Assembly (NCBI GenBank): GCA_044224705.1 | Contig: JBGAJY010000005.1 | Coordinates: 2,220-66,219 of the forward strand | DNA: 64,000 bases | Direction: 5' to 3' | DNA from: Saprospiraceae bacterium | GTDB lineage: Bacteria > Bacteroidota > Bacteroidia > Chitinophagales > Saprospiraceae | Shown here: in pieces, positions 4,506 through 26,755 of the stretch | How positions within the stretch are numbered: the stretch's first letter is position 1 | How the letters are laid out: each line of letters starts with the position of its first letter | Made by a program: the position numbers and the translations under genes | Notes under the pieces: generated by a model | The model's database searches: none | What the model saw: the letters and a program-made list of their open reading frames with translations, nothing else | What the model was told of the DNA's origin: nothing

Positions 4506-5408
4506 ATGACACCCAGCTGGAACGGCGTGTATCCCGCCCTCACGACCCCCTTCACTGCCGATGGCGAATCGGTGGACTATCCTGTTTTTGAAAAAAACCT
4601 ACACGCCCAGCTCGATGCCGGCGTGGACGGCGTCATTCTGGGCGGCACGCTTGGCGAAGCCAGCAGTCTGCTGAACGAGGAGAAATACGAGCTCGTACGC
4701 TTCACCGTCGACAAGGTCGCCGGCCGTGTGCCCGTAGTGATGAATATTGCAGAGCAAACCACCCGCGCTGCCGTGGCCGCTGCCCGCGAGGCGGAGCGTT
4801 GTGGCGCCGCCGGCCTCATGCTCCTGCCGCCGATGCGGTACAAGGCCGACGACCGCGAAACGCTGGTCTATTTCCGCGCGGTGGCCGAAGCGACCATGCT
4901 GCCCATCATGATCTACAACAATCCGGTGGATTACAAGATCGAGGTCACGCTGGATATGTTCGAGGCCATGATCGACTGGCCGACGGTGCAGGCGGTGAAG
5001 GAAAGCACCCGCGACGTGAGCAACGTGACGCGCATGCTCAACCGTTTCGGCAACCGGTTTAAAATCCTTTGCGGGGTGGACACGCTCGCCCTGGAAAGCC
5101 TTTTCATGGGCGCCCACGGCTGGGTGGCGGGTCTGGTAGACGCATTTCCGCGCGAGACCGTGGCCATTTTTCAACTGGCCAAAACCGGCCGGTTCGAGGA
5201 CGCTTTGAAGATTTACCGCTGGTTTTTACCGCTTTTGGAGTTGGACATTCACCCCAAACTCGTGCAATACATCAAACTGGCCCAGGCGGAAGTGGGGTTG
5301 GGTACGGAGTACGTGCGGGCGCCGAGGCTGGTGCCGGAGGGAGAGGAGCGCGACGCCGTGCTGGGAGTGATCAGGCAGGCGCTGGCAGGCCGGCCGAATC
5401 TGGGGTGA
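4506..5408 (+). CDS. DapA/NAL-family class-I aldolase (dihydrodipicolinate synthase family protein)
   Basis: Motifs 'GVDGVILGGTLGEASSL' and 'PIMIYNNP', with Schiff-base Lys context 'VQAVKEST'. 300 aa. Confidence 0.75.
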   Translation: MTPSWNGVYPALTTPFTADGESVDYPVFEKNLHAQLDAGVDGVILGGTLGEASSLLNEEKYELVRFTVDKVAGRVPVVMNIAEQTTRAAVAAAREAERCGAAGLMLLPPMRYKADDRETLVYFRAVAEATMLPIMIYNNPVDYKIEVTLDMFEAMIDWPTVQAVKESTRDVSNVTRMLNRFGNRFKILCGVDTLALESLFMGAHGWVAGLVDAFPRETVAIFQLAKTGRFEDALKIYRWFLPLLELDIHPKLVQYIKLAQAEVGLGTEYVRAPRLVPEGEERDAVLGVIRQALAGRPNLG

Positions 5409-5579
5409 CCATCGCGGCGTGTGCTTCGGGTTATTGAAAACTGAAAATATAAATCCGTTCCGTCTGCGAACGAAAGGTTTTATCTGTAGTAATCGGCGGG
5501 AATGCAAAACAAAAATTACCCGCGTGATTTGTAGGTAGATTGTTGATAAATTCTACCTTGCAGTATAAAACCAAATTAT

Positions 5580-8500
5580 ATGACCCTGCCACCTGATTTT
5601 TATACTTTCCCGGATGGCCGGGAGAGAATCGGCCGTGAAATAGCCCAAAGGCTCAGTTTCAATCGAAACAAGTCGACGGCCGAATCAACAAAGACAGACA
5701 AATCTGTTATTGAAGTTTTATTCATCGGAGAAATATTCAAGGAAGACCTGTTTTACTCCTGGGTGGATCGGTTGCCGGACTCGATACAAAAGGTTCGTGT
5801 AACCACTATTTTTAATAAATATTCCTTCTACAGCCATGGCAAGGTAGTGCACCCTTCGGAACGGGTTATTGAAATAAATCAAGAGATAATAGAAGGTTAT
5901 TTAGACGATGATAATTTTTTTAAACAGCTCCCCTTCTCCCATTTCGACCTGATCGTTTGCTGTTTTGAATTGCACTTCTGTTTGAATTGGCGGTGGGCGC
6001 TGTTTAAGCTGCTTGAACGATTGAAAGAAGGAGGCAGTTTTCTTTTTGTCGACATTACTGAAGACTTCGAATTTTTTGACGGGAATTTTAAGAATAAGAA
6101 TTCCGATGTCAGGTTCCTCGACAAAGGGTCGGATCTCCTGCCTTTGGACGCGTTCAAGCGTTTTATGATGAAGTTCGATGAATTAAGATCGGAATATTTC
6201 TACTGGAAACCAGCCATCAGTACTTCTAATTACCAGGTTCTGGCCGAACAGATCGACCCGTTTTTCCAGGAAGTTCAGCGATTGGGGGATGAAGATATTA
6301 CCGAGGAAAAAAGCAGGCGATTCAGAAATACAGCGACTTACGAGCTCAGTATAGAACAGGTTCTGGACTGGCTGAAAACCAAGGCAGACAACAAAGTCCC
6401 GCTGAGTTATCTTCGAATGGGACTGTCTTATGACAACAGGATTAAGATCGCCTATGATTTGGAAGACTGGATGAAGCAAAATCCGGACATGCGCGGAAAG
6501 GAAAAGGTGACCTTTAAAATTGAAAAGGGCCTCCGGGTTTACCTGGCTTCCGGGCTGATTACCGAAAAATTGATGGGTTTCAACGGCTGGAGCTACAAGT
6601 CATTCCCGAAGGATATTCAATCCATCAACGACAGCAATATTGGTTCGTTGGCCAGGAAGGCTCTGGACCTGATGATCAGTCACGGCTTTTTCATACCTGA
6701 CCGCACATTATATGCTGCTGTCCTGTCGTGGCAGGATGACCATGAAGGATGGGATTATCCGATACACCTGATTCTCAATGAAAAACTCAATTATGAAGAA
6801 GACCCTGAACGTAACTTCATCGGCCGAACGGTACAATCATCCCAATTGGCAGACCGGAGGATGCGCAGCCGGTTTGCGAGGTTAATTTTGCTGGAGAAAA
6901 AACAAAAATATTCCGGACTGAAATCATTGTTTAAAACGTTGCCTTATAAATTCCAGGTCGTCATCCGGCTCTCCAAACATCCGGAATTGGAATATAAGGC
7001 TGATAAATTTGCCCTAATCGAGGACGAGGGATTGGTGCCGCAAAACGCCATACGCTACAGGTTAAACTTTGACTCAAAGAACCAAATCAAGCGCTTAACC
7101 ATACTGCTGCACTCGGATTTTAATGCTGTCAGGGAAAATAAGGTTGACCTGAAGGGTTACGAGGAGAAATTAAACCAGCCAGGACCGTTTGAAGACCTGA
7201 TATCTGTACCCATAAAGCCCGGATTATTACGGCGTTATGTGATCACCGACCAGTTTGCGGATTTTGTAAAATCCTTCGATGGCGGAGAAAGTGAGAACGT
7301 GGAGTCGGAATTGATTGGAAAACCCATTCTTTATCAGGATAATGACGATAGGCAGCGCCTTATGCAGGCTTTGCGGCTCGATGAAAATGGGTTCGAGCAA
7401 TTGTTGCGTGCGTTGGATGTGATCAAAAAATTCCAGTTGCGCGAGCCAGGTTTCCAGCTGTCCCTGTTCCCTTCGGGGGTCATTCAGCAGAAATCCGATC
7501 TGGTGAAAGGATTAGGCGGCATCCTGATCTATGAAAAGACAGATCCGCTTGCCCTGGGCACGGAAAGCGACGAGGAACAGGCCTACCTGGAATTGATTTT
7601 TTCCCGCAATCGCGCCATTGTGGAGGCTAACAACCTCATTTTTTACAAGGTGGGTATAGTGAACGCTCACCAGCACAATTTTAAAAAACTGGCTTTGCAG
7701 GCTGCAATTGCCAACGTTTTTGCGCGTAATGGCTCTCACGGGTTGGGAAGTCACGTGTTACCGGCGGTGGCTGCACTGGCTACTTCTTCCTTAAAGGATG
7801 ACCAGATACTGTTCAGTTATATCCAGCAACGACTGGATTTTATCGCACAGGCTACTGCGGGTTTCCCCAGATGGACGTATCCATCCTGGCTCATTAAAGA
7901 TGTCTTATCCCGGTATTTCAAACAAAAACACCTGCTGAGCAATCTTGCAGCCTCCGAAAACCTCGGAGCATTCGAATACGATAATGGTGAGCAATATAGT
8001 AAAATACAATTTGTGATCCGGAAACGGCAGATGATCCCACTGGGTGCGGATGAGGATATTCCCAAGGAAGAAGACTGGAACCACTTTGCGGCAAAAAAAA
8101 TGCTGGATGACAAATTGGAAAATACAGTTTATGCCACGCTGGAAGATAAATTCTATGGAATAGTTGTCAGGATGACCTTAGCCGAATCGGGCGAGGTCAA
8201 CTATGGCGCGGTAGATATATTGTTTCATAATTCCGCTATCACCTGTCTGCTGACCAAACCTGCAGAAAAAATTTACCAGCCAGGCGACCGGCTTTTGATC
8301 CAGGGAACGCTGCACCGGGATCTTTCGGACCCCGACCACCCCAAATACTGGTTTAATGACGGCCGGATCATTGCCGAAAGTAAAATTACAGAATTGATAG
8401 ATGAGAAAGGAGGAGGCGTGTTGAGCGAAGATGTCCAGGTTGCAATTCCGGGAGGAATCGTTGGCTACCAGGCTTTCTATTCTATTCTCGAGAATGCTAT

Positions 8501-10964
8501 TCGCAACGCAGCCAAACACAATTGGACAAAATTACTGCACCCGCCTTCGAATCTGATTCTCACTATTGAAATAGATGAGCGCCAAAACCAGCACTACCAT
8601 ATCTGCCGGATATGGACGAACTCCACCAACATGTTGGCGAAGGATGGACTATGGTCTCCGAGGCCTGATTTCGGTTTTACGCAGGAGCAAATACTGGATC
8701 CGGAAAAAGGGCCCAATATTTTGAGCCAAAACCTGAATAAATTCATTGCTGAGAACCTTATAGATAGGGATGGAAGAATGTCGAGAAACAATCTGGGTAT
8801 GGCTGAAATGAAAATCGCAGCCGGATTCCTGTACAAATACGGGCTCTTGGCTATCGGCTCTCTGGACGAAAAAAATCCAGCCCTGTTACACCGGACAAAG
8901 CCGGAATACGGCATTTTCAGGGCTTCCGATATATGGGAAAGAGACGGGAATGAGTTGATTCCCAGATTGGGGTTTAGGTTTAAATTGCTCAAACCGCGGG
9001 AAATCGTTTTTATCACAAACGATAGCCTTCTTGCAAGCAGCATGCAAATCCCTTCGGTGACCTTCGCCGATCTGCCTCGTGAAATTGAGTCAGGTAACCT
9101 CGATTATGAATTCTGCTTGTTACATCTTCGTCTGGAGGACCAGCAATCATCTACCCATCCTCTACTTTCGGATACAAGCCGTAATTTCCTGGGCACATTG
9201 TTCGCTTACCTTATCGAAGTCTTTGGCGGCACTACCGATGACCGCGACCCTGTCGGGACGGATCATCCAGGTGAAATAAAAGTAAGCAACCTCCAGAAAC
9301 TGATGGAGTTTATAGAAGATTACCCTTATCGGTTGATTCTTGTTTATCCCAAAGAGCGCCTTGCTGATTACATAGCGCCGCTTATTGAAAAAATTTATCT
9401 GGGACAAAGTACACGCGAAAACAAGGAGAATACAATCCTTCGGTTCCGGGAGTTTGAAGCCTGGATACAAGGGATGTCTATGAAAACCGATCTCGTGTCT
9501 GCCGAAATGCGAAAAAAGCTGCGTTTTATACAAAAACGAATTTACTGGTGGGACGATGAGTCATTCCGACAGGCCTGTGCCCAAAAAGGAACGGATGGCC
9601 TGACTTCAACGGAGATGTTCAAATTAAGGGTATACCGAACCTGGGTCAAATTATTCGAGGGCAAGGGCTGGAAATATCAATTGTCTGTAATCAACGAGGA
9701 CAAAAGCGACACTTCGGATATGAACATCTTTCAAATGTTTAAAAATGAAAGAACAGCGCTTGTCGAATTGGTTATCGCTTGCCTGGAGCAACAGCGTGCA
9801 TTGTCAAATAATTCCACCTCCTTGTCCGGTAAGCAGAAAATGCAAATCAGGGAGAAACTATCCGGAAACCTGCCCGGTGGCGAAAATAAAATCCGGTCTT
9901 TTTTGGGGGCATGGCTAGACATGATAAAGGAGGACTACCCGTTTGAAAAAAAGAATAGCGTGGTCAGCATTTTATATGACTACCTCGAGGATCGGATCAA
10001 GCATTTGTCCAGATCGGTTTCGACGGTGCCAATCTGCCTCCGACCCGGAAATAAGCCTTTTGATGAGAAATTCTTTGGCAAGGACATCAAATGGGATGAG
10101 GATATGCTCGAATCTGGCCGCCAATATTCTTCGGATCGGATAAAAACAATCTGCTATAAAAGGCATAGTTCGGAAGACAAGGGAAGTCATGTGTACTTTG
10201 AGCACCTGACGGGCAGTAAAATATCCTATGCATTATTCCAGCATTTGCCGGAATCGACCTACCTGAAGCGGAAATTTCAGATGCAGCTGGTTGAAAATGC
10301 CCTGATGACCGTACTCATTTTGGATGAGCGCATCCTGCATTTTGTCAACGATGAAGAATTTCGAAATGCAACCTATTTCAACCAGGTCAATATTGCTATC
10401 GTGCGGTATATCACAAAAGGCAATCAGACTGTTTTCCCTCAAAAAAGCGCGGTTGAATTTAAAAACGACAGCCAGAAGAAACTTGTTGATATCTACATAC
10501 AGGTTAAAAAAAGAGAAGACCACAAACGAAACAGGCCTGAAGGCAGGAATACCAAGTCCAGGAAGCCGCGTTTGCGGACCGACCATCTGCACACCGAGCC
10601 TGTCGATCTGGATCACTTTCATTTGTTTTTTGAATTGCCTGAAAATACCTTGATGCCGGGCAGCGATAACGACAAATTCCGTATTTCAACCATCATTCTG
10701 CACCATACTTTGCTGGAGAGCCTGTGCGAAAAGGATAAAACCCAAATGGATAATTTTATCAATGCGCTGAAATTGCAAATTCCAAGTGTCATGATCACTT
10801 CCGGGCGCGGAAGGCCTCAAAACTTGCCCGAGCTGGCTCGTTATCTCCCTTTTTCGCACCTGGAAAGCCATTTGCTCCAAAAATACCCGGACAAGTTGCT
10901 GTTCAGCCAGGCTATTTTCAAGGCTTTGCATTGGAAATGGTACCACGAAACCCACGAAAGTTAA
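5580..10964 (+). CDS. Island gene A: giant 1794-aa multidomain protein of unknown function (degenerate class-I methyltransferase-like N-terminus, histidine-kinase-like H-box/N-box core, pseudo-receiver-like C-terminus)
   Basis: Uninterrupted 5.4-kb ORF. aa ~40-165: 'VIEVLFIGEI...FDLIVCCFELHFCLNWRWALFKLLERLKEGGSFLFVD', a Rossmann MTase pattern without GxGxG. aa 713-727: 'FARNGSHGLGSHVLP' (compare HisKA FxxNxSHELRTPL). aa 969-981: 'ILENAIRNAAKHN' (HK-type N-box), followed by 'NNLGMAEMKIAAGFL' and 'GFRFKLLKP'. No canonical DxGxG G1 box and no Walker A. aa ~1576-1794: 'VLILDER..IILHHT..VMITSGRG..YLPF'. Sampled 60-nt lines hand-count to ~38-42% GC. Confidence refers to the region being coding, not to function. 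Confidence 0.85.
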   Translation: MTLPPDFYTFPDGRERIGREIAQRLSFNRNKSTAESTKTDKSVIEVLFIGEIFKEDLFYSWVDRLPDSIQKVRVTTIFNKYSFYSHGKVVHPSERVIEINQEIIEGYLDDDNFFKQLPFSHFDLIVCCFELHFCLNWRWALFKLLERLKEGGSFLFVDITEDFEFFDGNFKNKNSDVRFLDKGSDLLPLDAFKRFMMKFDELRSEYFYWKPAISTSNYQVLAEQIDPFFQEVQRLGDEDITEEKSRRFRNTATYELSIEQVLDWLKTKADNKVPLSYLRMGLSYDNRIKIAYDLEDWMKQNPDMRGKEKVTFKIEKGLRVYLASGLITEKLMGFNGWSYKSFPKDIQSINDSNIGSLARKALDLMISHGFFIPDRTLYAAVLSWQDDHEGWDYPIHLILNEKLNYEEDPERNFIGRTVQSSQLADRRMRSRFARLILLEKKQKYSGLKSLFKTLPYKFQVVIRLSKHPELEYKADKFALIEDEGLVPQNAIRYRLNFDSKNQIKRLTILLHSDFNAVRENKVDLKGYEEKLNQPGPFEDLISVPIKPGLLRRYVITDQFADFVKSFDGGESENVESELIGKPILYQDNDDRQRLMQALRLDENGFEQLLRALDVIKKFQLREPGFQLSLFPSGVIQQKSDLVKGLGGILIYEKTDPLALGTESDEEQAYLELIFSRNRAIVEANNLIFYKVGIVNAHQHNFKKLALQAAIANVFARNGSHGLGSHVLPAVAALATSSLKDDQILFSYIQQRLDFIAQATAGFPRWTYPSWLIKDVLSRYFKQKHLLSNLAASENLGAFEYDNGEQYSKIQFVIRKRQMIPLGADEDIPKEEDWNHFAAKKMLDDKLENTVYATLEDKFYGIVVRMTLAESGEVNYGAVDILFHNSAITCLLTKPAEKIYQPGDRLLIQGTLHRDLSDPDHPKYWFNDGRIIAESKITELIDEKGGGVLSEDVQVAIPGGIVGYQAFYSILENAIRNAAKHNWTKLLHPPSNLILTIEIDERQNQHYHICRIWTNSTNMLAKDGLWSPRPDFGFTQEQILDPEKGPNILSQNLNKFIAENLIDRDGRMSRNNLGMAEMKIAAGFLYKYGLLAIGSLDEKNPALLHRTKPEYGIFRASDIWERDGNELIPRLGFRFKLLKPREIVFITNDSLLASSMQIPSVTFADLPREIESGNLDYEFCLLHLRLEDQQSSTHPLLSDTSRNFLGTLFAYLIEVFGGTTDDRDPVGTDHPGEIKVSNLQKLMEFIEDYPYRLILVYPKERLADYIAPLIEKIYLGQSTRENKENTILRFREFEAWIQGMSMKTDLVSAEMRKKLRFIQKRIYWWDDESFRQACAQKGTDGLTSTEMFKLRVYRTWVKLFEGKGWKYQLSVINEDKSDTSDMNIFQMFKNERTALVELVIACLEQQRALSNNSTSLSGKQKMQIREKLSGNLPGGENKIRSFLGAWLDMIKEDYPFEKKNSVVSILYDYLEDRIKHLSRSVSTVPICLRPGNKPFDEKFFGKDIKWDEDMLESGRQYSSDRIKTICYKRHSSEDKGSHVYFEHLTGSKISYALFQHLPESTYLKRKFQMQLVENALMTVLILDERILHFVNDEEFRNATYFNQVNIAIVRYITKGNQTVFPQKSAVEFKNDSQKKLVDIYIQVKKREDHKRNRPEGRNTKSRKPRLRTDHLHTEPVDLDHFHLFFELPENTLMPGSDNDKFRISTIILHHTLLESLCEKDKTQMDNFINALKLQIPSVMITSGRGRPQNLPELARYLPFSHLESHLLQKYPDKLLFSQAIFKALHWKWYHETHES

Positions 10965-10971
10965 TCACACG

Positions 10972-11685
10972 ATGTTGCAGCCAGTGTACCTTCTGATCTC
11001 ACGGATTACATCAAGTGCCGAAAAACTGGAAAGCTTTGGAGACTTCTACTCGAACTGGACGCCCGGCAACGACTGGAAAATGCCATGGATCGACCAGCTC
11101 GGCCTTCACAAAGCGGAACACAGCGCATGGCTGGATGGCGTTATGTTGCCGGCTATACCCGAACTGGCTTCCCTTTGGGAAACTATATTAACAACCGGCG
11201 ACGAAAATATCCCGGCCAACTGGTTTGAAGCGTCAGCGTTCGCGCAGTTTTTAGTCAAATTGAGGTCGCACCTCGGAAAAGTACCGGATGATGCAACACC
11301 TGTGCTCCGCGTGCTTGTCCATTTCGGAAATACCGTGAGCCACGTAAAAAAATTCTACAAGCCCCGCCTGCTCCAATATCTGGAGCATCATAATCTGGCT
11401 GGCAGCGTCGAGATATTTCCCTATTCAACAGGTGAAAACTTCGACGGTATCCTATTGAGAGGCAGCGAATTCAATACAAGGCAGGGCGAAGCTGAGCTGA
11501 TTCAAAGCCTGGATGCGGAAATCGGCCGTCTGCTGGAGCATTCTTTCTTTCAGGAAATCAATCAGGAAATGGAAGAAAAAGTAAAAAAACGATTCTTGAA
11601 ACTGGTTTCGGACAAAGCCTCTCCTTCCGATTTGAAAAAAATTCTCAATAGAATCGAGCAGCGCCACAAACGCAAAATCAACTGA
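10972..11685 (+). CDS. Island gene B: 237-aa hypothetical protein, no recognisable motif
   Basis: ATG lies 7 nt after the gene A stop. No signal peptide or TM segment. C-terminus is helical and charged (EEKVKKRFLKLV...RHKRKIN). Confidence 0.7.
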   Translation: MLQPVYLLISRITSSAEKLESFGDFYSNWTPGNDWKMPWIDQLGLHKAEHSAWLDGVMLPAIPELASLWETILTTGDENIPANWFEASAFAQFLVKLRSHLGKVPDDATPVLRVLVHFGNTVSHVKKFYKPRLLQYLEHHNLAGSVEIFPYSTGENFDGILLRGSEFNTRQGEAELIQSLDAEIGRLLEHSFFQEINQEMEEKVKKRFLKLVSDKASPSDLKKILNRIEQRHKRKIN

Positions 11686-11689
11686 TCCG

Positions 11690-13450
11690 ATGAGCGCCCT
11701 TCTTTACCACGTACAACCGCTCCTGAGCACCAATGCCGCAGAAAACTATCTGGGCATTGCAGGAAGTCCGACTGATGAGAACCTGAAAGAAGTTGCGGCG
11801 GAGATCAGCAGACGCCTCAAAGAAGACGGCAGGTTTGAGCCCAACGCTGATGCCCCGCAGATTGTGCTTTTGCTGGCCCCCGCTGGCGATATCAGGAAAG
11901 AAGTAATCGATGCCCTGGCTGAAAAAACCCGGGAACGTGTCATACAAGCGATTGAAAGTAAGCCGGGCAAGGGTGCCGCAGCCGAAAATTCCCGGCATCT
12001 TGTCCCTGTGCTGACCGTAGGTTTGATCGACTGGATGGACGACTACAGGCCGAGGATAAAAAACGGAAAAAATACCATTCAAAATTTGTCCATGGGCAAC
12101 CCTTATGCCCGGCATGGCGATTTCGACCCGCGCTACCGGTTTTTGAACAGTAATATCTGGTTTCGGTACGCTCCTGTCATATTTCCCAAAAACGCCCCTG
12201 ATAATGACGGGCTGGATGCAGTGCGCTACGCCTTGAAAGAGGTTTCGAGGTTTTACAGAGAAGGCGCCTACGACACCAAAGTCGCCCATGAGTTCCTGGA
12301 ACTGCAGTTGCGCCTTTTGCTGCAATCCCACCTACGGGTTGGCAGCACCCATTCCAAGGTGGTTCCTTTTGCATTTTATTCGGATACTATCCTCTACAGC
12401 GAAGCATTAAAAGAACTGCGGTACCTCGAAGGCATCAAATGGAGAATTCTCATCGTAGACGACCAGGCGGAGGAGGCTATTGAACGCCTGGAAACTACTT
12501 GTCCTTCGCCTGAAAACGCCATCCAGTCAGAAGGCCAGCCGGACGCGATGAGCAAAAGACAGTTCGTTCAAAAACACCTGGAAGCTATCGTTCAAGACGC
12601 GAATGGGACTACCCGCGAGATTCAATCCGACAACTTTCTATGGTGTTGTCGATCCACGCTGGCCGAAGGGTTCGAGGCCGTTGTCAACCAGCCGGAAATT
12701 CATTATGATGTGATTATGCTGGATTACTTTTTTAAAGGGGAAAGATCTGGCCGGCAAAATCAGAGCGGCTTCAGCGACGACAAATCCGGGGAGCAATTAA
12801 TCGCGGAAATCGTTCAGCAGTTGCGAAAAAAAGACACCGACAGCCGGCAACTCCTGGGGCCCTTGAACAAACTTTTCTTTTTTTCCATATCCGCGTACGG
12901 ATCCGCCCTTGAAGAAAAACTGCAGCATCTCGCCATCCCGCAAAACGATCGAAAGTGGCTTTTTTCGCAGGGCGGGCACCCGATCTGTACGCCTTATTTG
13001 TTCCTGTTCCGGTTCTTTTCCCTGCTCCGGCAACAGGTGGAGGAAGTGGCGGAAATCGACTTGTCCAAGGCGGGCAGCGCACCCCAGTCCAAACTGGCCA
13101 TTCTGCTAAAAAAACTCACTTCCGATGGAAACTTTGACCCCCAAAAAGCCCTGGATCTGTTTCCCTCTTTTGTTGAACTGGGCGCAACTTTTAAAAGACT
13201 TTCCAATTTCAGGAAACAAAGTGTATTTGCCGACTCTGCCCTGAACCGGTACTTTTTTGGATTAACCATCGAACATTGGAACAGGTTGCAGCACCTGATT
13301 TATCTGCTGACCTACGGCACGGAACAGGAATACTGGGAAATGCGTGAAGAGTGGAAACACCTGAACCAGCTGGCCGAATTCAGCGCCGGCAACAACCACG
13401 CTTTGAATGTCATCGGCACATACATAGCCGATCTAAATATACGATCATGA
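11690..13450 (+). CDS. Island gene C: 586-aa protein with a central receiver (CheY/REC)-like domain
   Basis: ATG lies 4 nt after the gene B stop. aa ~250-440 follow the REC pattern: 'RILIVDDQ' (D257, D258), 'YDVIMLDYFF' (D345), 'LFFFSISAYGS', 'WLFSQGGHP'. The flanking N- and C-terminal regions have no recognisable motif. Confidence 0.8.
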   Translation: MSALLYHVQPLLSTNAAENYLGIAGSPTDENLKEVAAEISRRLKEDGRFEPNADAPQIVLLLAPAGDIRKEVIDALAEKTRERVIQAIESKPGKGAAAENSRHLVPVLTVGLIDWMDDYRPRIKNGKNTIQNLSMGNPYARHGDFDPRYRFLNSNIWFRYAPVIFPKNAPDNDGLDAVRYALKEVSRFYREGAYDTKVAHEFLELQLRLLLQSHLRVGSTHSKVVPFAFYSDTILYSEALKELRYLEGIKWRILIVDDQAEEAIERLETTCPSPENAIQSEGQPDAMSKRQFVQKHLEAIVQDANGTTREIQSDNFLWCCRSTLAEGFEAVVNQPEIHYDVIMLDYFFKGERSGRQNQSGFSDDKSGEQLIAEIVQQLRKKDTDSRQLLGPLNKLFFFSISAYGSALEEKLQHLAIPQNDRKWLFSQGGHPICTPYLFLFRFFSLLRQQVEEVAEIDLSKAGSAPQSKLAILLKKLTSDGNFDPQKALDLFPSFVELGATFKRLSNFRKQSVFADSALNRYFFGLTIEHWNRLQHLIYLLTYGTEQEYWEMREEWKHLNQLAEFSAGNNHALNVIGTYIADLNIRS

Positions 13451-15612
13451 ACACTGGGTACTGGTTTTTTCCCGATACAGTTATCCTTTCCGAATCCAGA
13501 CATTCTGTGTTTCGCTACAAGCGCGTGTCGATAACGGAAGAACATTCGACCAGCCTGGATTTTCCGGTCTATGTCGCTCTCGAACCCGACCAGATCAGGT
13601 TTTTTTTCGATGGCAACGAGCCTGGAAACAACAGGCACCATCATTACTGTGTATTGTCTTTGCCGTTGAAGCGACCGGAAGAAGTAGAAAGCAACCTCGC
13701 GTCGGCTTTGCGGGAAGAAATACGCGTTGACCCGGAATCGTACCGCCACATCCTGCCCGGGGATGCAGATCAAACCCAATCCTATTCGTATCTCCACAAT
13801 ACCCTGCCGACCAATGCATACCCTGTAACACACCAGTTGTTTCAGACAAAGATGGGCTCCTGGCAACAGGAAACCCTGCCCATTTGGGTGCTGCTGCTCG
13901 ATTTTTTGTTCGACCTCCGGCATTCGACAGTATTTCAGCGTTATCCGGCCTTCAATGAACTGCTCAATACACTGGAGGCCGATCCCTTGCTGCATGCCCT
14001 GCTGAAAAAATGCGAGTACTACTACTGCCAACTGCGCTATCAGGAAGACAAAACGGCCTGGAATAATGCCGATAATACCTTCAAACCATTCAAATCAAAA
14101 TTGTTGCACGCCAGTTCCAACGAACTTCAGGAGGCTGAGAAAAAGTGGCTGCATTTTATTCTTCGCGATCAGGATAACCACCCTCCCGAATTCGGAGAAG
14201 GATGGCTCTATCCGTCGGAACAGGAGCTGAGGGCTGTGCTGTTCAATGATGATATACATAAAAAGCATATTTTCGATCGCAGCATAATTAAACGCGTTTG
14301 TAATAAATGGCCTCCTCAAAACAAGAAAGTGTTCTGGCGCAGCGAATGGATAGTAGATCACATGAACCTGGTGTCAAATGGCGAAGAGCAAATTCATCCT
14401 CGGCAAACCAGGGAAGAAGTCTACCGGTTTTTCATCAGTCGGTTCGGCCTGTTTGCCGCTTGGCGGTTTTTTGTTTTGAACCTGAGTTGGGGCTGGATTT
14501 TTTATGTGTTGCTTATAGCGCTGATTGTATTGGAGGTTTGGTTTGGTCTGAACGATGAACTATTTGGTCTTTTTGCCTTGCCAGGTGCGTTTTTTGGACT
14601 TCTTATTCCGTTTGTTGCCTTTGTTCGGGTGGTTGCCCGTTATGCTTTTAAGTTAGCGCGCCGCATTTTGAACTGGATTGAACCCGGGATTATCCGTGAT
14701 TGGAAACAAGCCGAATCTTACAGCTTCGCCCTCGCATTGCCCAACCTGACACTGGGCATACTGGGCGGCTGGTTCGCTTTGATGCCATTTGCCGAGGAGG
14801 CCTGGGCTTTGAACCTCAGCGTTTCGGACACTGCTGTCACGATCGGATTTATAGGGCTGATGTCATTTTCGTTAATGGTAATTTTCAACACAATCAAGAC
14901 GTTAGTGCCCACGCTTCCCGGGTTCATTTCAGTGATACGAAGTTCAAGCGTACTGTTTGCCGGAATCAGTTTTTCACTTTGTTGCGGGTTAGGTACAATG
15001 GGCTTGCTGGGGCAAAGTGTATTCAACGACCCGCTCAAGTTTCTGCCGCATGAAAGACAGGCGGACAAATTGAACGATTTGAATGCAATGAAGGACAGTA
15101 TTTATTCGGTGATATTCATGCTCGAGGAGATGAAAGACTATTTGCACTCCCAACCGGATTCCATTCAGGCGGCAATATGCGAAACCGCTATTCAAGACGC
15201 GGATAACGAGGTTTGTTCACTGTACGCCAAATTCCTGCCACAGGAAAATCATTTTTGTGGCGGATTGGCACCCGCCATCAATAAATACTGGAATGATGCA
15301 AAAACCTCTGCAAATCCTGACTCAACGCTCTGTTTATGCATCTATACCTGTAAGCAGACATGGGATGCAGCATACGATCGGCAGAGAAAAGTTTATGCCC
15401 ATGATTTGATCCGTTCATTAGAAGAGCAGGAATCGTTCTGGCTTTGCCCCAACAGTCTCGATTGCCTCCATTTCCCGGTAAGGGGCAACAACCACAACCA
15501 CTGTATTTTCTTCTTCCCCCGCCTCCTCCTGATTTATTCCGCCATCACGTTTTTCATCGGCTTCTTCATACAGGTGACCATCCAACGGCTGGGCTACAAC
15601 CAACCGGTCTGA
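13447..15612 (+). CDS. Island gene D: 721-aa polytopic membrane protein with a Cys-rich loop
   Basis: ATG 13447 overlaps the gene C stop (ATGA at 13447-13450). About 330-aa soluble N-terminus. At least 6 hydrophobic helices (e.g. WGWIFYVLLIALIVLEVWF, LFALPGAFFGLLIPFVAFV, LTLGILGGWFALMPF, VTIGFIGLMSFSLMVIF, VLFAGISFSLCCGLGTMGLLG). A ~150-aa loop with 10 Cys, then a final helix LLLIYSAITFFIGFFIQV. The track start 13351 is an in-frame extension inside gene C. Confidence 0.8.
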   Translation: MNTGYWFFPDTVILSESRHSVFRYKRVSITEEHSTSLDFPVYVALEPDQIRFFFDGNEPGNNRHHHYCVLSLPLKRPEEVESNLASALREEIRVDPESYRHILPGDADQTQSYSYLHNTLPTNAYPVTHQLFQTKMGSWQQETLPIWVLLLDFLFDLRHSTVFQRYPAFNELLNTLEADPLLHALLKKCEYYYCQLRYQEDKTAWNNADNTFKPFKSKLLHASSNELQEAEKKWLHFILRDQDNHPPEFGEGWLYPSEQELRAVLFNDDIHKKHIFDRSIIKRVCNKWPPQNKKVFWRSEWIVDHMNLVSNGEEQIHPRQTREEVYRFFISRFGLFAAWRFFVLNLSWGWIFYVLLIALIVLEVWFGLNDELFGLFALPGAFFGLLIPFVAFVRVVARYAFKLARRILNWIEPGIIRDWKQAESYSFALALPNLTLGILGGWFALMPFAEEAWALNLSVSDTAVTIGFIGLMSFSLMVIFNTIKTLVPTLPGFISVIRSSSVLFAGISFSLCCGLGTMGLLGQSVFNDPLKFLPHERQADKLNDLNAMKDSIYSVIFMLEEMKDYLHSQPDSIQAAICETAIQDADNEVCSLYAKFLPQENHFCGGLAPAINKYWNDAKTSANPDSTLCLCIYTCKQTWDAAYDRQRKVYAHDLIRSLEEQESFWLCPNSLDCLHFPVRGNNHNHCIFFFPRLLLIYSAITFFIGFFIQVTIQRLGYNQPV

Positions 15613-15621
15613 TAAGAAAAA

Positions 15622-15655
15622 CGGCTGGGCTAGGGTTTGATCCCCGACCCAGCCG
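15622..15655. terminator. Stem-loop between convergent genes (island gene D / phosphohexomutase)
   Basis: CGGCTGGG (15622-15629) pairs with CCCAGCCG (15648-15655) around an 18-nt loop. It lies 10 nt after the gene D stop and 25 nt after the convergent gene's stop. The T-tract is weak. Confidence 0.5.
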
Positions 15656-15679: not shown

Positions 15680-17080
15680 CTAAAGTATCGTCTCCTTCGT
15701 CGCATCCAGCATTCGCCTGCACTCCGCCAGATCGCCCGACTGGGCATACACCCGCAGTACCGGTTCGGTGCCCGATGCACGGATCATGACCCATTTTTCG
15801 TCGCCAAAGACGAACTTCCAACCGTCGAGATCTTCCACGCTCTGGATTTTGTACGAGCCGAAAGCCTTGTAGGAACGGCTGTTGCAGGCGGCGATCACAG
15901 CCTGTTTCTGCGCTTCGGTGATGTGCAGGTCGTCGCGGTCGAAGGCGAATTTGCCGACTTCCTTGTACACTTCTTCTACGAGACCTTTTACTGTTTTCCC
16001 GGTTTTGGCCATGAATTCGAGCACCAAGAGGCCGATCCACACGCCGTCGCGTTCCGGAATGTGCCCTTTGACGGCCAGGCCGCCGGATTCTTCACCGCCC
16101 ACGATCACGTCTTCCTTGGTCATGATTTCGGCAATGTACTTGAAGCCGACTTTCGTGATCTCGTATGGGAGGCCGAATTTTTCAGCCATTTTTTTCAGTT
16201 TGTCGGTCACCGAGAAGGTGAAAACGACTTTGCCGCGCAGGTTTTTGTATTTGTACAGATACAGCAGCAGGATGAGCAGCAGGTGGTGGCTGTCCACAAA
16301 ATTGCCGTCTTCATCGTACATCCCGATGCGGTCGGCATCGCCGTCGGTGGCGAGGCCTGCCGTGATTTTGGGATTCTTTTTAACGGTATCGCTGAGCAGC
16401 GTCAGGTTGCGGTGGATGGGCTCGGGCGCCTGGCCGTGCATTCCCGGGTTTTCGTCGCAATGCAGGAAAATGGAGCGGGGCAGGAGTTTGCGCACGGCGC
16501 GCTGGCCGGCGCCGTACATGGCATCGTAGGCGAGGCGTCCGGCGCTTTGTTTGATGGCGCTCAGGTCGAAGTTCTTCTTCGCATGGCGCAGGTACATGGT
16601 TTCGAGGTCGGCGTCGGCGAAGAGTTTTTTCTGCGTCAGTTCGCCCAGGGTGGGCAGTGATTTCAGCGAGCACGCTTCGGGAATAAGTTTTTCCACCTCG
16701 GCAATGTCGGCGGGTATCATCGGGCCGCCGTAAGAGGCTTTGAGTTTGAAGCCGTTGTAGGAAGGCGGGTTGTGGCTGGCCGTGATCACGATGCCGAGGT
16801 CCGCTTTGAGTTTCACGACACCCAGAGAAACCATCGGAGTGGATACGAAGCCCACTCCGGCGTGCACTTTGATGCCGTAGGCGCCGAGTACGCGGGCAGT
16901 TGCGCTGACGAACAAATTGCCGCCGAAACGGTAGTCATGACCGATAACGGCCTTTTTCATTTTGCGTGCTTTCATGAACAAGGCGGTCGCCTCGGCCACG
17001 CGCATCACATTCTCCACCGTGTAATCGTCGGCGATGATGGCACGCCAGCCGTCCGTGCCGAATTTGATCGGAATTGCCAT
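15680..17080 (-). CDS. Alpha-D-phosphohexomutase (phosphoglucomutase/phosphomannomutase family)
   Basis: Active-site 'ITASHNPPSYNGFK', metal loop 'ATDGDADRIG' and sugar loop 'GGEESGG'. 466 aa. Confidence 0.88.
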   Translation of the reverse strand: MAIPIKFGTDGWRAIIADDYTVENVMRVAEATALFMKARKMKKAVIGHDYRFGGNLFVSATARVLGAYGIKVHAGVGFVSTPMVSLGVVKLKADLGIVITASHNPPSYNGFKLKASYGGPMIPADIAEVEKLIPEACSLKSLPTLGELTQKKLFADADLETMYLRHAKKNFDLSAIKQSAGRLAYDAMYGAGQRAVRKLLPRSIFLHCDENPGMHGQAPEPIHRNLTLLSDTVKKNPKITAGLATDGDADRIGMYDEDGNFVDSHHLLLILLLYLYKYKNLRGKVVFTFSVTDKLKKMAEKFGLPYEITKVGFKYIAEIMTKEDVIVGGEESGGLAVKGHIPERDGVWIGLLVLEFMAKTGKTVKGLVEEVYKEVGKFAFDRDDLHITEAQKQAVIAACNSRSYKAFGSYKIQSVEDLDGWKFVFGDEKWVMIRASGTEPVLRVYAQSGDLAECRRMLDATKETIL

Positions 17081-21767: not shown

Positions 21768-21841
21768 CGCGCCTCCAGCCAACCTTTTTTTAAAATTGAC
21801 CTTCTTTGAGGCAAAATCTATCACGCCTCCAGTTTTTAAAC

Positions 21842-23494
21842 ATGAAAAATCTGCTACTTACCGCCTTTGCCCTATTGGCTATCTCGGGTTTTTGTCAAAG
21901 CCCGAACCTGCAAACGGAGTCTTCCGGCAACCGCCGCGCGGGCGAAATCCTTGTGCAACTCGAGCCGAATCAAACCTTCGACAAGGTCTTCGCCGGGCAA
22001 AGTTTTTTTGTCCTGAAAAATGTTGTGGCGCCGGATTGGCACATCCTCTTGCTTGGTTTTGACGAGCAACCCGGCCAGGGCGAAGCAGCCCTGAACAAAG
22101 TAAACCGCCTCCCCGGTGTCCGGGTCGCCCAGTGGAACCACGAAGCCGAGTCGCGCGCCACGCCGAACGATCCCAGCTGGGCCTCCCAAACGGATATGAC
22201 CCTGATCGGCATGCCGCGGGCCTGGGACGGCTCCACCGGCGGAGTGATGTACACCCGCGACAGCATCCGGGGCGACACGATCGTCGTGGCGGTGCTGGAA
22301 GAAGGTTTTTTGATCACTCACCCCGATATTACGCCCAATCTCTGGCACAACTGGGGCGAACATCCGGGCAACAACTTTGACGACGACGGCAACGGCTACG
22401 TGGACGATTACACCGGCTGGGATCCCGTCGACGGCGCCTCCGGACCGGGCAATACCGCCCCCCACGGCACCTCGGTTTGCGGCATCGTCGGCGCCCGCGG
22501 CAACAACAACCTGGGTGTGAGCGGCGTCAACTGGAACGTCAAACTGATGGTGATGACCCATTCGGCCAAGTTTGAATCCGACATCGTGGCCGCCTATTAT
22601 TATGTCGCGAAAATGCGCCGCCGGTACAACGAATCCAACGGCAACGAAGGCGCCTTCGTCGTGGCCACCAACGCCTCCTTCGGGATCGACGGCGGCAAAC
22701 CTGCACAACACCCGCTCTGGTGTGCCGTGTACGATTCGCTCGGCAGGGTCGGCGTGCTGAATATTGGCGCCACGGCCAACAGCAACGTGAACGTGGACCT
22801 GGTCGGCGACATTCCGAGCACCTGCCCCAGCCAGTACCTCGTCGGGGTGACCAATGTCGTGGCCTCTTCCGATGTAAAAAGCATCAGCGCGGGCTATGGC
22901 GCGGAGTCCATCGACATCGGCTCGCCGGGCGACGGATCATTCACCACGGCCATCGGCTCCGGCGGGACGGCAGGGTATGCCAATTTCACCGGCACATCGG
23001 CTGCCACGCCGCACGTCACCGGCGCCGTGGCCTTGCTGTATTCGCTCGACTGCCCCAGCCTGGCCGGCGACGCGCTGAGCAATCCCGCCGCTTGCGCCCT
23101 TCGTTTTAAAGAACTGTTGCTCAAAAGCGCGACGCCGAACTCCAGCCTCGAAGGCATTACCGTCACCGGGGGGCGCCTCGATGTAGCAGCCGCAGCCGAT
23201 TCCGTGCGCGCTTCCTGCGGCGGCTCGTCCGGGCCGCTGGCTATTTTCGCCATCCAGCCCAACCCAACCCGCTCGACACTGGAGCTCCGGTATGAAACGC
23301 CCAATTTCGAACCTTACACTTTCCGCGTGTTCAACATGCTAGGACAATTGCTCTTCGAAGACGTGATCCATCCGGAACAATTCGGCGAGAAATACTACCG
23401 CTGGGACGATGTAAAATACCTTCCCGCAGGGGTGTATGTAGCGGCTATTACCCAGGGCCGCGCACGAGTAGCAAGGAAATTTGTGAAAATTTAA
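21842..23494 (+). CDS. Secreted subtilisin-family (S8) peptidase with T9SS C-terminal sorting domain
   Basis: Signal MKNLLLTAFALLAISGFCQ. His box 'HGTSVCGIVGA' and Ser box 'GTSAATPHVTGAVALL'. 'DDDGNGYVDDYTGWD' loop. C-terminus 'IQPNPTRSTLELRY...VFNMLGQ...LPAGVYVAAI'. The Asp box reads 'VAVLEEGF' instead of D(T/S)G. Confidence 0.8.
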   Translation: MKNLLLTAFALLAISGFCQSPNLQTESSGNRRAGEILVQLEPNQTFDKVFAGQSFFVLKNVVAPDWHILLLGFDEQPGQGEAALNKVNRLPGVRVAQWNHEAESRATPNDPSWASQTDMTLIGMPRAWDGSTGGVMYTRDSIRGDTIVVAVLEEGFLITHPDITPNLWHNWGEHPGNNFDDDGNGYVDDYTGWDPVDGASGPGNTAPHGTSVCGIVGARGNNNLGVSGVNWNVKLMVMTHSAKFESDIVAAYYYVAKMRRRYNESNGNEGAFVVATNASFGIDGGKPAQHPLWCAVYDSLGRVGVLNIGATANSNVNVDLVGDIPSTCPSQYLVGVTNVVASSDVKSISAGYGAESIDIGSPGDGSFTTAIGSGGTAGYANFTGTSAATPHVTGAVALLYSLDCPSLAGDALSNPAACALRFKELLLKSATPNSSLEGITVTGGRLDVAAAADSVRASCGGSSGPLAIFAIQPNPTRSTLELRYETPNFEPYTFRVFNMLGQLLFEDVIHPEQFGEKYYRWDDVKYLPAGVYVAAITQGRARVARKFVKI

Positions 23495-23556: not shown

Positions 23557-23632
23557 GGCTCCGTAGCTTAATGGATAGAGCATCTGACTACGGATCAGAA
23601 GGTTAGAGGTTCGAGTCCTCTCGGAGTCACCA
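23557..23632 (+). tRNA. tRNA-Arg (anticodon ACG), CCA encoded
   Basis: Manual cloverleaf. Acceptor GGCTCCG/CGGAGTC (one G-U pair). D-arm GCTT..GAGC. Anticodon stem TCTGA/TCAGA with loop C-T-ACG-G-A. T-arm AGAGG-TTCGAGT-CCTCT. Discriminator A followed by CCA. Confidence 0.92.
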
Positions 23633-26624: not shown

Positions 26625-26755
26625 GCGATGGGATGGACTTTTTGACAACGATCAGTCTGGTCGACTATGGCAATTTGATTTTACTGCAAAAATTGAACCC
26701 TTTCCGACGGTTCTGTCGAAAAGGGTTCCAAAAAAATGAGTTTTGACCAATCGCG

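Follow-up and report, generated by a model that had tools for sequence, protein, structure and literature searches.

A large, unannotated family of divergent histidine-kinase-like proteins in a conserved multi-gene setting, coupled to an obligatory domain not seen before

The known proteins that come closest in kind to the one discussed here appear, from sequence comparison and modelling, to be the canonical two-component histidine kinases (HKs), such as T. maritima HK853 and E. coli EnvZ. The protein in question, ORF1, is the product of a large open reading frame (ORF) in a Saprospiraceae bacterium, on a stretch of 64,000 nucleotides (GenBank assembly GCA_044224705.1, contig JBGAJY010000005.1, positions 2,220 to 66,219 of the forward strand) that is called the window below and to which all coordinates refer unless another locus is named. 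Like the canonical kinases, ORF1 possesses a predicted helical hairpin with a conserved His in an N-x-S-H context, followed by a predicted catalytic and ATP-binding (CA) domain that has an N-box of the form NxxxNxxK(Y/H), then a loop resembling G2 and, at its end, an F-x-h-x-(K/L)-P strand; moreover, a receiver partner adjoins it, and NtrC-type activators accompany its relatives. Unlike them, it falls below every curated model, lacks the DxGxG motif (the Asp-equivalent being Thr), carries about 185 residues inserted between the hairpin and the CA domain, has a second near-invariant His (H725) five residues after the first (H720), continues into an obligatory helical region of about 350 residues and then a novel alpha/beta domain of about 260 residues, and is devoid of a transmembrane sensor. 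ORF1 would seem to work like one of these kinases, but by the G1 box and by the thresholds of the curated models it falls outside the canonical class.

Three other described groups invite comparison. The HEF_HK (PF19191) and Response_reg_2 (PF19192) proteins form pairs resembling two-component systems that are related to paraMORC, have recognisable HATPase_c and HATPase_c_3 domains, lie by restriction-modification (R-M) systems and occur mostly in Proteobacteria (Bellieny-Rabelo et al. 2021, PMC8011034). Those pairs, too, were found computationally as divergent kinase-like and receiver-like partners, and they are soluble and methyltransferase-associated; however, ORF1 matches none of their models, and the context of its family is either an ATP-binding cassette (ABC) importer with NtrC or two genes named ORF3 and ORF4 below. 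Sensor kinases that depend on a solute-binding protein are likewise a known class (review PMC8050422). The likeness here is a Peripla_BP_6 binding protein, together with an ABC transporter, encoded directly upstream and on the same strand in 37 of the 58 related loci with enough upstream sequence, whereas the family core lies in the cytoplasm and lacks a periplasmic domain on which such a protein could dock, and the clade to which the window belongs has lost the transporter genes. Finally, the N-terminus of ORF1 keeps the part of the class-I S-adenosylmethionine (SAM) methyltransferase core that follows motif I (FDhIhCxFELHF ... LKxGGxFhF, as in Methyltransf_12/23/25/31), but the glycine-rich SAM loop has been lost clade-wide and the scores stay below the Pfam cut-offs.

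The reading favoured here, with a probability of roughly 0.55, is that ORF1 is a cytoplasmic atypical sensor histidine kinase of an unannotated family, the predicted module being ORF1, ORF3 and ORF4 with a variable ORF2.

5580-10964, forward strand: ORF1, 1794 residues from an ATG start, uninterrupted; an atypical histidine-kinase-like multidomain protein composed of a family core and a clade-specific N-terminal extension.

The initial annotation of this DNA, made by eye from the letters, had described an ORF of this length and had quoted twelve peptides from it. The ORF was recovered as described, and all twelve strings occur in it, at most one residue from where they had been placed:

Residues 46-53: VLFIGEIF.
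Residues 122-133: FDLIVCCFELHF.
Residues 714-728: FARNGSHGLGSHVLP, originally off by one residue.
Residues 969-981 (8484-8522, forward strand): ILENAIRNAAKHN.
Residues 992-999: LILTIEID.
Residues 1008-1017: ICRIWTNSTN.
Residues 1070-1084: NNLGMAEMKIAAGFL.
Residues 1131-1139: GFRFKLLKP.
Residues 1578-1584: VLILDER.
Residues 1705-1710: IILHHT.
Residues 1737-1744: VMITSGRG.
Residues 1755-1758: YLPF.

Most searches that start from a single sequence or from an existing model return nothing for this protein. NCBIfam, PADLOC and PHROGs gave no match for ORF1-ORF4 or for segments of ORF1, Pfam gave nothing but sub-threshold methyltransferase matches for these four proteins and the segments of ORF1, and a PDB sequence search with ORF1 alone and with two family profiles returned nothing relevant. 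In a word-indexed search of 5.8 billion proteins ORF1 matched only itself, with one relative added when a profile was used, and a single-protein scan of species-representative genomes found no match, while a profile-guided scan did yield loci. An exhaustive HMMER search, with residues 601-1794 as the query and 1.84 billion cluster representatives as the target, returned 2002 representative relatives at E<=1e-3, of which 312 reach E<=1e-30. Lengths of 750-2230 residues and identities of 31-43% characterise the best 150; the relatives are unannotated, the sole relative cluster with an NCBI source name being called "hypothetical protein", and no description of the family was found in the literature searched. 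On these results, ORF1 belongs to a large family of histidine-kinase-like proteins that are highly divergent and have never been annotated.

Four blocks are common to nearly all of the best 149 relatives (residues 700-800, 945-1150, 1526-1600 and 1700-1775), the first ~690 residues being common to only about 18. Column conservation was counted over an alignment of 120 family members, the basis of all residue counts below. In the hairpin block (consensus SRNGSHNIGSHVL), R716, S719, H720 and G723 are found in all 120 sequences, S724 and H725 in 119 and N717 in 118. In the N-box block, with the consensus AIPGGxVGxxAFYTILENIIRNAAKH, the invariant or near-invariant residues are G958, G959, G962, E971, N972 (112/120), R975, N976 and K979 (both 120/120) and H980 (117/120), which stands in place of Tyr. 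They are joined by G1073 and E1076 in the G2-like segment (consensus GLAEMKI) and, in the C-terminal domain, by R1528, H1529, S1544, G1545, E1572, D1582, E1583, R1584, H1708, T1740, G1742, R1743 and G1744. Such near-invariance makes the motifs first picked out by eye a signature of the family, far beyond chance, and the four kinase residues singled out in the initial annotation for a check among homologues (H720, H725, N972 and N976) all proved invariant or nearly so.

The structure of the core was predicted with AlphaFold2 (AF2) for residues 601-1794, on the basis of 70 relatives, with a mean predicted local distance difference test (pLDDT) score of 70.9 and a predicted template-modelling score (pTM) of 0.77. 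The model has long helices at residues 664-691, 693-733 and 736-760; the second of these bears the SRNGSH..GSH motif halfway along, and beyond a poorly modelled insertion there follows a confident alpha/beta domain at residues ~953-1140. The elements of this core are the following:

7656-7859, forward strand: hairpin resembling a dimerisation and histidine-phosphotransfer (DHp) domain, residues 693-760, with AF2 helices 693-733 and 736-760; full-length kinase Foldseek alignments span these helices and the CA domain.
7719-7763, forward strand: H-box-like motif FARNGSHGLGSHVLP, with the invariant RNxSHxxGSH and H720 as predicted phospho-acceptor.
8412-9014, forward strand: predicted CA/ATP-binding (Bergerat-fold) domain, residues 945-1145, with the N-box at 8484-8522, the G1-equivalent Thr1013 and a G2-like GMAEMK at residues 1073-1078.

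When the AF2 core was compared with the PDB by Foldseek, the top 50 matches were all histidine kinases. They include full-length LOV-HK chimeras (E 4e-3 over 546 aligned columns for 8a7h) and the CA domains of CusS, ThkA, HK853, WalK, VraS, PrrB, ETR1 and CheA P4, with probabilities of up to 0.98. Profile comparison agrees: residues 945-1145 of the family align by hhalign with a canonical CA profile of 121 sequences (120 HisKA+HATPase_c kinases collected with HK853 as the seed) at E 6.4e-5 and a probability of 64%; the 110 aligned columns stay in register from the N-box, past the G1 position and the G2 loop, as far as the last strand, and cross-domain controls gave E 0.28. In this alignment N972, N976, K979 and H980 stand opposite N376, N380, K383 and Y384 of HK853, so that the N-box, NxxxNxxKH, is of the kinase type, and G1073-(L/M)-A-E1076-M-K falls on GLGLaIxK, with one Gly only kept. 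Furthermore, HATPase_c was the most frequent sub-threshold Pfam match among 32 relatives (10 of 32 at E<=1, best E 0.0043). Taken from model and profiles, these matches indicate that the domain is an HK-type Bergerat-fold CA domain. The atypical histidine-kinase core and the HK-type N-box proposed in the initial annotation have thus held up, as has its statement that a canonical DxGxG is lacking.

By eye, FARNGSHGLGSHVLP resembles the HisKA sequence N-x-S-H-E-L-R-T-P, and H720 is the predicted phospho-acceptor because it never varies, stands in an N-x-S-H context and lies on one helix of the hairpin. The H-box-like motif first noted by eye has stood as an invariant RNxSHxxGSH on a long helix, but its kinship with HisKA did not reach significance in profile comparison. 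The second hairpin helix bears a conserved motif of its own: residues 751-763 (7830-7868) read RLDFIAQATAGFP, the family motif being RMDFIAQxTTEFP, and resemble the HisKA H-box flank EFIANISHELRTP, with the position of the His occupied by Thr in the family and by Ala in the window. It is this pairing of RLDFIAQATAGFP with EFIANISHELRTP that hhalign prefers, at a non-significant E of 0.009. EnvZ, as a single sequence, did not match the family profile significantly.

Several results weigh against a kinase. The HisKA and HATPase_c models of Pfam gave no match to segments of ORF1 even at E<=10, and no curated model of either kind reached threshold for ORF1 or for the 32 relatives. The comparison of the hairpin with a HisKA profile, DHp against DHp, was not significant and picked helix 2. 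The Foldseek E-values are modest, the best being 4e-3 with no match at E<1e-3, and the target-normalised TM-scores are 0.42-0.49 for PDB entries that consist of the CA domain only. About 185 residues between the hairpin and the CA domain are poorly modelled, and all of the 77 loci obtained from the genome scan (L009-L085) come from metagenome-assembled genomes (MAGs) or other assemblies of uncultured isolates. Lastly, at residue 1013, the equivalent of the G1 Asp, the window and 15 of 19 clade members have Thr, with Asp found in only 58 of the 120 sequences overall, and the G1 box shows neither the canonical DxGxG nor any GxG.

The genomic context of the family was drawn from 85 loci, obtained by look-ups and by the profile-guided scan of species-representative genomes, of which 81 are non-redundant with the window counted. 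They span Bacteroidota, Calditrichota, Kiritimatiellia, Lentisphaerae, Delta-proteobacteria, Planctomycetota, Nitrospirota, Acidobacteriota, Chloroflexota, Clostridia, the phyla of the candidate phyla radiation (CPR) and archaea. The putative archaeal members lie in MAGs L017, L031, L047 and L058 (Promethearchaeota, Heimdallarchaeota, Aenigmatarchaeota and Methanobacteriota), and putative CPR members in MAGs L065 and L077. Clustering of the neighbouring ORFs revealed an archetypal operon that begins with two BPD_transp_2 permeases, two ABC ATPases, the Peripla_BP_6 binding protein and often a SAM enzyme, and continues with the core gene, one or two small proteins, an NtrC-type receiver/sigma-54 activator and a variable terminal module. 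A receiver-domain gene occurs within 7 kb downstream of the core gene in 46 of the 60 loci with at least 3 kb of downstream sequence, and one neighbouring receiver protein has the composition REC+Sigma54_activat+HTH_8. When six-frame ORFs of all loci (1.34 Mb) and of the window were searched, a receiver hidden Markov model (HMM) matched 80 ORFs and a canonical HK HMM found no kinase at E<0.01; therefore the family is the only kinase candidate for these receivers. Flanked in other phyla by a Liv-type ABC importer and its binding protein on one side and by an NtrC-type receiver/sigma-54 activator on the other, the core gene looks like the kinase of a multi-component signalling operon. Since its members share conserved operons with receiver-domain proteins, this divergent kinase-like family is probably a branch of two-component signalling, in bacteria and archaea, that is new.

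The Bacteroidota clade of the window lacks both the transporter and the NtrC gene, and its module consists of the core gene, a variable small ORF, an ORF3-like gene and an ORF4-like gene; the order core, ORF3-like, ORF4-like is kept in Bacteroidota, Calditrichota, Kiritimatiellia and Cloacimonadota. In the window, four same-strand genes lie in a stretch of about 10 kb, from 5.5 to 15.6 kb, those downstream of ORF1 being:

10972-11685, forward strand: ORF2, 237 residues; its slot is variable in related loci.
11690-13450, forward strand: ORF3, 586 residues; conserved partner with a divergent receiver domain.
13447-15612, forward strand: ORF4, about 721 residues from MNTGYWFF; conserved polytopic membrane protein and last gene of the module.

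ORF3, whose homologues lie 3' of the core gene in 15 loci, is the candidate partner of ORF1. Its insertion-bearing receiver region (nucleotides ~12440-12919) includes WRILIVDD at residues 251-258, with the DD pair at 257-258 intact, SISAY at residues 399-403 and a predicted phospho-acceptor, D345 (12722-12724), within YDVIMLD. Pfam left this receiver undetected even at E<=10, whereas the receiver HMM matched the ORF3 frame at E 6e-4, and the ORF3-family profile aligned by hhalign at a probability of 97% (E 4.8e-11) with a receiver profile built from 73 receiver domains of genes neighbouring family members. These matches indicate that ORF3 carries a real, divergent receiver domain. ORF4-like genes encode six-transmembrane (six-TM) proteins and were found in 17 loci, always downstream and on the same strand; the start of ORF4 is supported by alignment to Met1 of a homologue, and its hydrophobic segments are present. 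ORF2 had no family match, and no relative of it was found even in the closest related operons, where unrelated small ORFs or none occupy the slot; it may be a lineage-specific accessory gene.

If ORF1 is a kinase of the kind proposed, it would dimerise through its helical hairpin, bind nucleotide in an atypical pocket and autophosphorylate H720, from which the phosphoryl group would pass to D345 of ORF3. ORF3 would then control ORF4, which would act as an effector or transducer in the membrane. The degenerate methyltransferase domain at the N-terminus may serve as a sensor, an input or a scaffold, and the C-terminal domain may modulate or extend the relay; its TSGRG loop and its RH and DER residues would suit the binding or turnover of a phosphorylated ligand.

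A kinase mechanism leaves the biological role of the module as a largely independent question, and one answer compatible with it, though a rather improbable one, is an operon of the conflict, defence or abortive-infection type rather than one for sensing nutrients or the environment, in which the kinase-like protein would sense infection or stress and the receivers would activate a toxic effector. That effector would be ORF4 in the window and a Cad1-like ATP deaminase elsewhere, since the terminal module is swappable: in 15-17 loci, the window among them, it consists of an ORF3-like protein with a divergent receiver and then an ORF4-like six-TM protein, in three loci of a ~1190-residue protein in which a divergent receiver-like region is fused to an adenosine deaminase, and in others of other membrane proteins. 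The deaminase part of the fusions matches PADLOC CARF_ADA (Cad1-type) at E 1.6e-49, and the fusion is possibly a receiver-controlled ATP deaminase. The fusions occupy the ORF3/ORF4 slot at L020:15665-19096, L021:15577-19149 and L084:11847-15437. A conflict role would also accord with the patchy spread over many bacterial phyla, CPR and archaea, with the SAM enzymes linked to the operon and with the position of the module as a low-GC island between housekeeping genes. However, the dominant context, a Liv-type ABC importer with an NtrC-type activator, is typical of metabolic regulation; PADLOC and PHROGs gave no match for ORF1-ORF4 or for the core, ORF3-like and ORF4-like homologues, the deaminase of those three other loci being the only match; and no known defence genes were seen near the module in the window.

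The SAM enzymes just mentioned bear on the N-terminal part of ORF1.

5697-6074, forward strand: predicted class-I methyltransferase-derived domain, residues ~40-165, with a degenerate SAM loop (VLFIGEIF); part of a clade-specific module at residues ~6-357.

This module of about 350 residues is common to the clade of the window, and its second half follows the pattern FDhIhCxFELHFxxNWR...LKxGGxFhF. Methyltransf_12, 23, 11 and 25 match residues 90-170 below threshold, with a best E of 7e-4 on a 300-residue segment and scores of 17.5-20.7 bits against a Pfam cut-off of 30. SAM motif I reads ILYIG..FQE in 18 of 18 clade relatives and VLFIGEIF in the window, instead of the canonical hhDhGxGxG. By hhalign the module matches, at a probability of 92% and E 5e-7, a stand-alone 337-residue methyltransferase, L056:8164-9177, which passes the Methyltransf_12 cut-off of Pfam (35.7 bits), keeps LLIGCGTG and is encoded directly upstream of a shorter family member. 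The degenerate class-I methyltransferase fold proposed at the outset is supported by the four sub-threshold families and by this match, and the domain is best read as a methyltransferase of the operon that was putatively fused to the core and has decayed, and for which other lineages have a separate upstream gene. Enzymes that use SAM recur directly upstream of the core gene, as class-I methyltransferases at L056:8164-9177, L021:8246-8941 and L003:2634-3497 and as radical-SAM enzymes, one with a SPASM domain, at L010:7948-8913 and L020:6811-7983. BLAST of ORF3 or of the N-terminal domain against neighbours in the short clade (L003) found no similarity.

To our knowledge, the G1 Asp contacts adenine in every characterised GHKL protein, and its replacement by Thr in the clade of the window therefore leaves ATP binding in that clade uncertain. 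For this reason a pseudokinase is a serious rival, albeit an unlikely one: the fold of a kinase would be kept, along with its invariant His and Asn, for structure or ligand sensing, with neither ATP binding nor autophosphorylation, at least in the Bacteroidota clade, and signalling would proceed by conformational coupling or by catalysis in the C-terminal domain. The G1 position, which is not conserved family-wide either, and the lack of DxGxG favour such a protein, and so do the loss of the SAM loop from the methyltransferase domain and the dense invariant polar set that the C-terminal domain has of its own. Against it, the invariance or near-invariance of E971, N972, R975, N976, K979, H980, G1073 and E1076 across the family is hard to explain without the binding of nucleotide and Mg, and H720 is retained in every sequence, with receiver partners that have an intact Asp conserved next door. 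Of the two, the kinase reading appears the likelier.

The remaining third of ORF1 comprises two elements:

9027-10139, forward strand: helical linker, residues ~1150-1520, mostly helical in the AF2 model, with conserved P1249, R1251, W1355, T1482 and P1484.
10140-10922, forward strand: family-specific C-terminal alpha/beta domain, residues 1521-1781, with enzyme-like invariant residues; not a receiver.

The domain is always present in the family, either fused or encoded by the next gene. In 19 of the 81 non-redundant loci two neighbouring genes take the place of one, gene A comprising the hairpin and the CA domain and gene B the helical linker and the C-terminal domain; because of this natural split, the C-terminal part is an autonomous but obligatory partner module. 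The split loci include L016, L022, L025, L035, L038, L047, L050, L054, L059, L066 and L085. In a dedicated AF2 model of residues 1500-1794 (pLDDT 78, pTM 0.78) the invariant residues, arranged as RH, SG, EN, DER, HQ, DK and T[ST]GRGxP, sit at the C-terminal ends of strands, and the set looks like an active site or a phosphate-binding site.

Foldseek of this model gave nothing significant against the PDB and no match against BFVD. The best PDB match was an MT-A70-type methyltransferase, rejected at E 0.14 and a probability of 0.21, and small GTPases and SIS domains matched more weakly. A SIS domain, suggested by the TSG loop, was set aside with an hhalign probability of 0.5% to the GmhA of the window itself and Foldseek E-values above 2 only; a duplicate of the N-terminal methyltransferase module scored 0.1% by hhalign; and a histidine phosphatase (RHG) rested on motif likeness, with no fold match among the matches listed.

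The initial annotation had seen in the last ~220 residues a CheY-like pseudo-receiver, with His-His in place of the acceptor Asp, and in the whole protein a hybrid-kinase-like scaffold. This model now seems very improbable. A permissive alignment does place LIIDER, IIHQ and VITSG at strand ends in the order beta1, beta3 and beta4, and the AF2 alpha/beta domain has these residues at strand C-termini. However, at default stringency the 73-sequence receiver profile aligned over 18 columns at a probability of 6.4%, the same profile that readily detected the divergent receiver of ORF3; no receiver appeared in the Foldseek top 50, nor did Pfam give a match; and the model has no helix (alpha4) between the equivalents of beta4 and beta5, as well as a large beta insertion and an extra N-terminal hairpin. 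The His-His pair survives in part: the acceptor position is His (H1708) in 117 of 120 sequences, but the second His (H1709) is Gln in 109. Since the genuine receiver is encoded by the neighbouring ORF3 and ORF1 is one gene of a conserved operon, the hybrid kinase was the wrong architecture.

Least probable is a GHKL ATPase, of the MORC/paraMORC type or another, that would be paired with a methyltransferase in the manner of R-M-associated systems, for which the GHKL fold, the methyltransferase association and the precedent of HEF_HK/HATPase_c_3 proteins near R-M systems (PMC8011034) speak, but against which stand the want of any Pfam match to HATPase_c_3, HEF_HK or Response_reg_2, an N-box with Asn four residues before N976 (the kinase-type NxxxN, not the ExxxN of GHKL ATPases), the absence of MORC, MutL, GyrB and Hsp90 from the Foldseek top 50 and the lack of R-M genes in the module of the window.

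As for the surroundings, the module (5500-15650) is a low-GC island of 45-50% G+C against 55-60% in the flanks, which hold a DapA-family gene at 4506-5408 and a phosphoglucosamine/phosphomannomutase-type gene at 15680-17080 on the reverse strand. Scans of the island for repeats and terminators revealed no integration signature, with no flanking direct repeats, tRNA or integrase. Elsewhere in the window, a 650-residue ORF on the reverse strand (24693-26648) adjoins two amino-acid permease genes and has no Pfam match at E<=1e-5. Two proteins sorted by the type IX secretion system (T9SS), a subtilase (21806-23494, forward strand) and a BNR/sortilin-like protein with a Por_Secre_tail (41849-44398, forward strand), are found together with a tRNA-Arg(ACG) (23557-23632, forward strand) and a SusC-like TonB receptor; the T9SS proteins and the tRNA are ordinary content of a Bacteroidota chromosome, and from the T9SS sorting domains and the SusC-like receptor the replicon is taken to be one.

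What was recovered is a divergent kinase-like family, together with a novel domain on which it obligatorily depends as a partner and a multi-gene context that is conserved. A bolder reading, tentative and on balance doubtful, is that it represents a new multi-component phosphorelay or conflict system, in which a kinase lacking the universal adenine-binding Asp, an obligatory and previously unseen catalytic alpha/beta domain and divergent receivers would together switch interchangeable effectors in bacteria, CPR and Asgard archaea; the alpha/beta domain could then be a module of a new kind for phosphotransfer or phosphatase activity, or could bind phosphorylated ligands.

Few protein families are catalogued as thoroughly as the histidine kinases, and yet large proteins in at least 2000 sequence clusters are missed here by every curated model tried. 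If these proteins are active, they would widen the range of sequences known for the ATP pocket of kinases, since the G1 Asp is missing, would add a new obligatory partner domain to two-component signalling, and would provide a kinase for many NtrC-type and divergent receivers of uncultured lineages that now look like orphans. If, in addition, the swappable effectors reflect a role in conflict, the operons would constitute a new type of kinase-triggered immune or stress module. Either way, the ORF1 family offers a concrete object for biochemical work and for a new Pfam/NCBIfam model.

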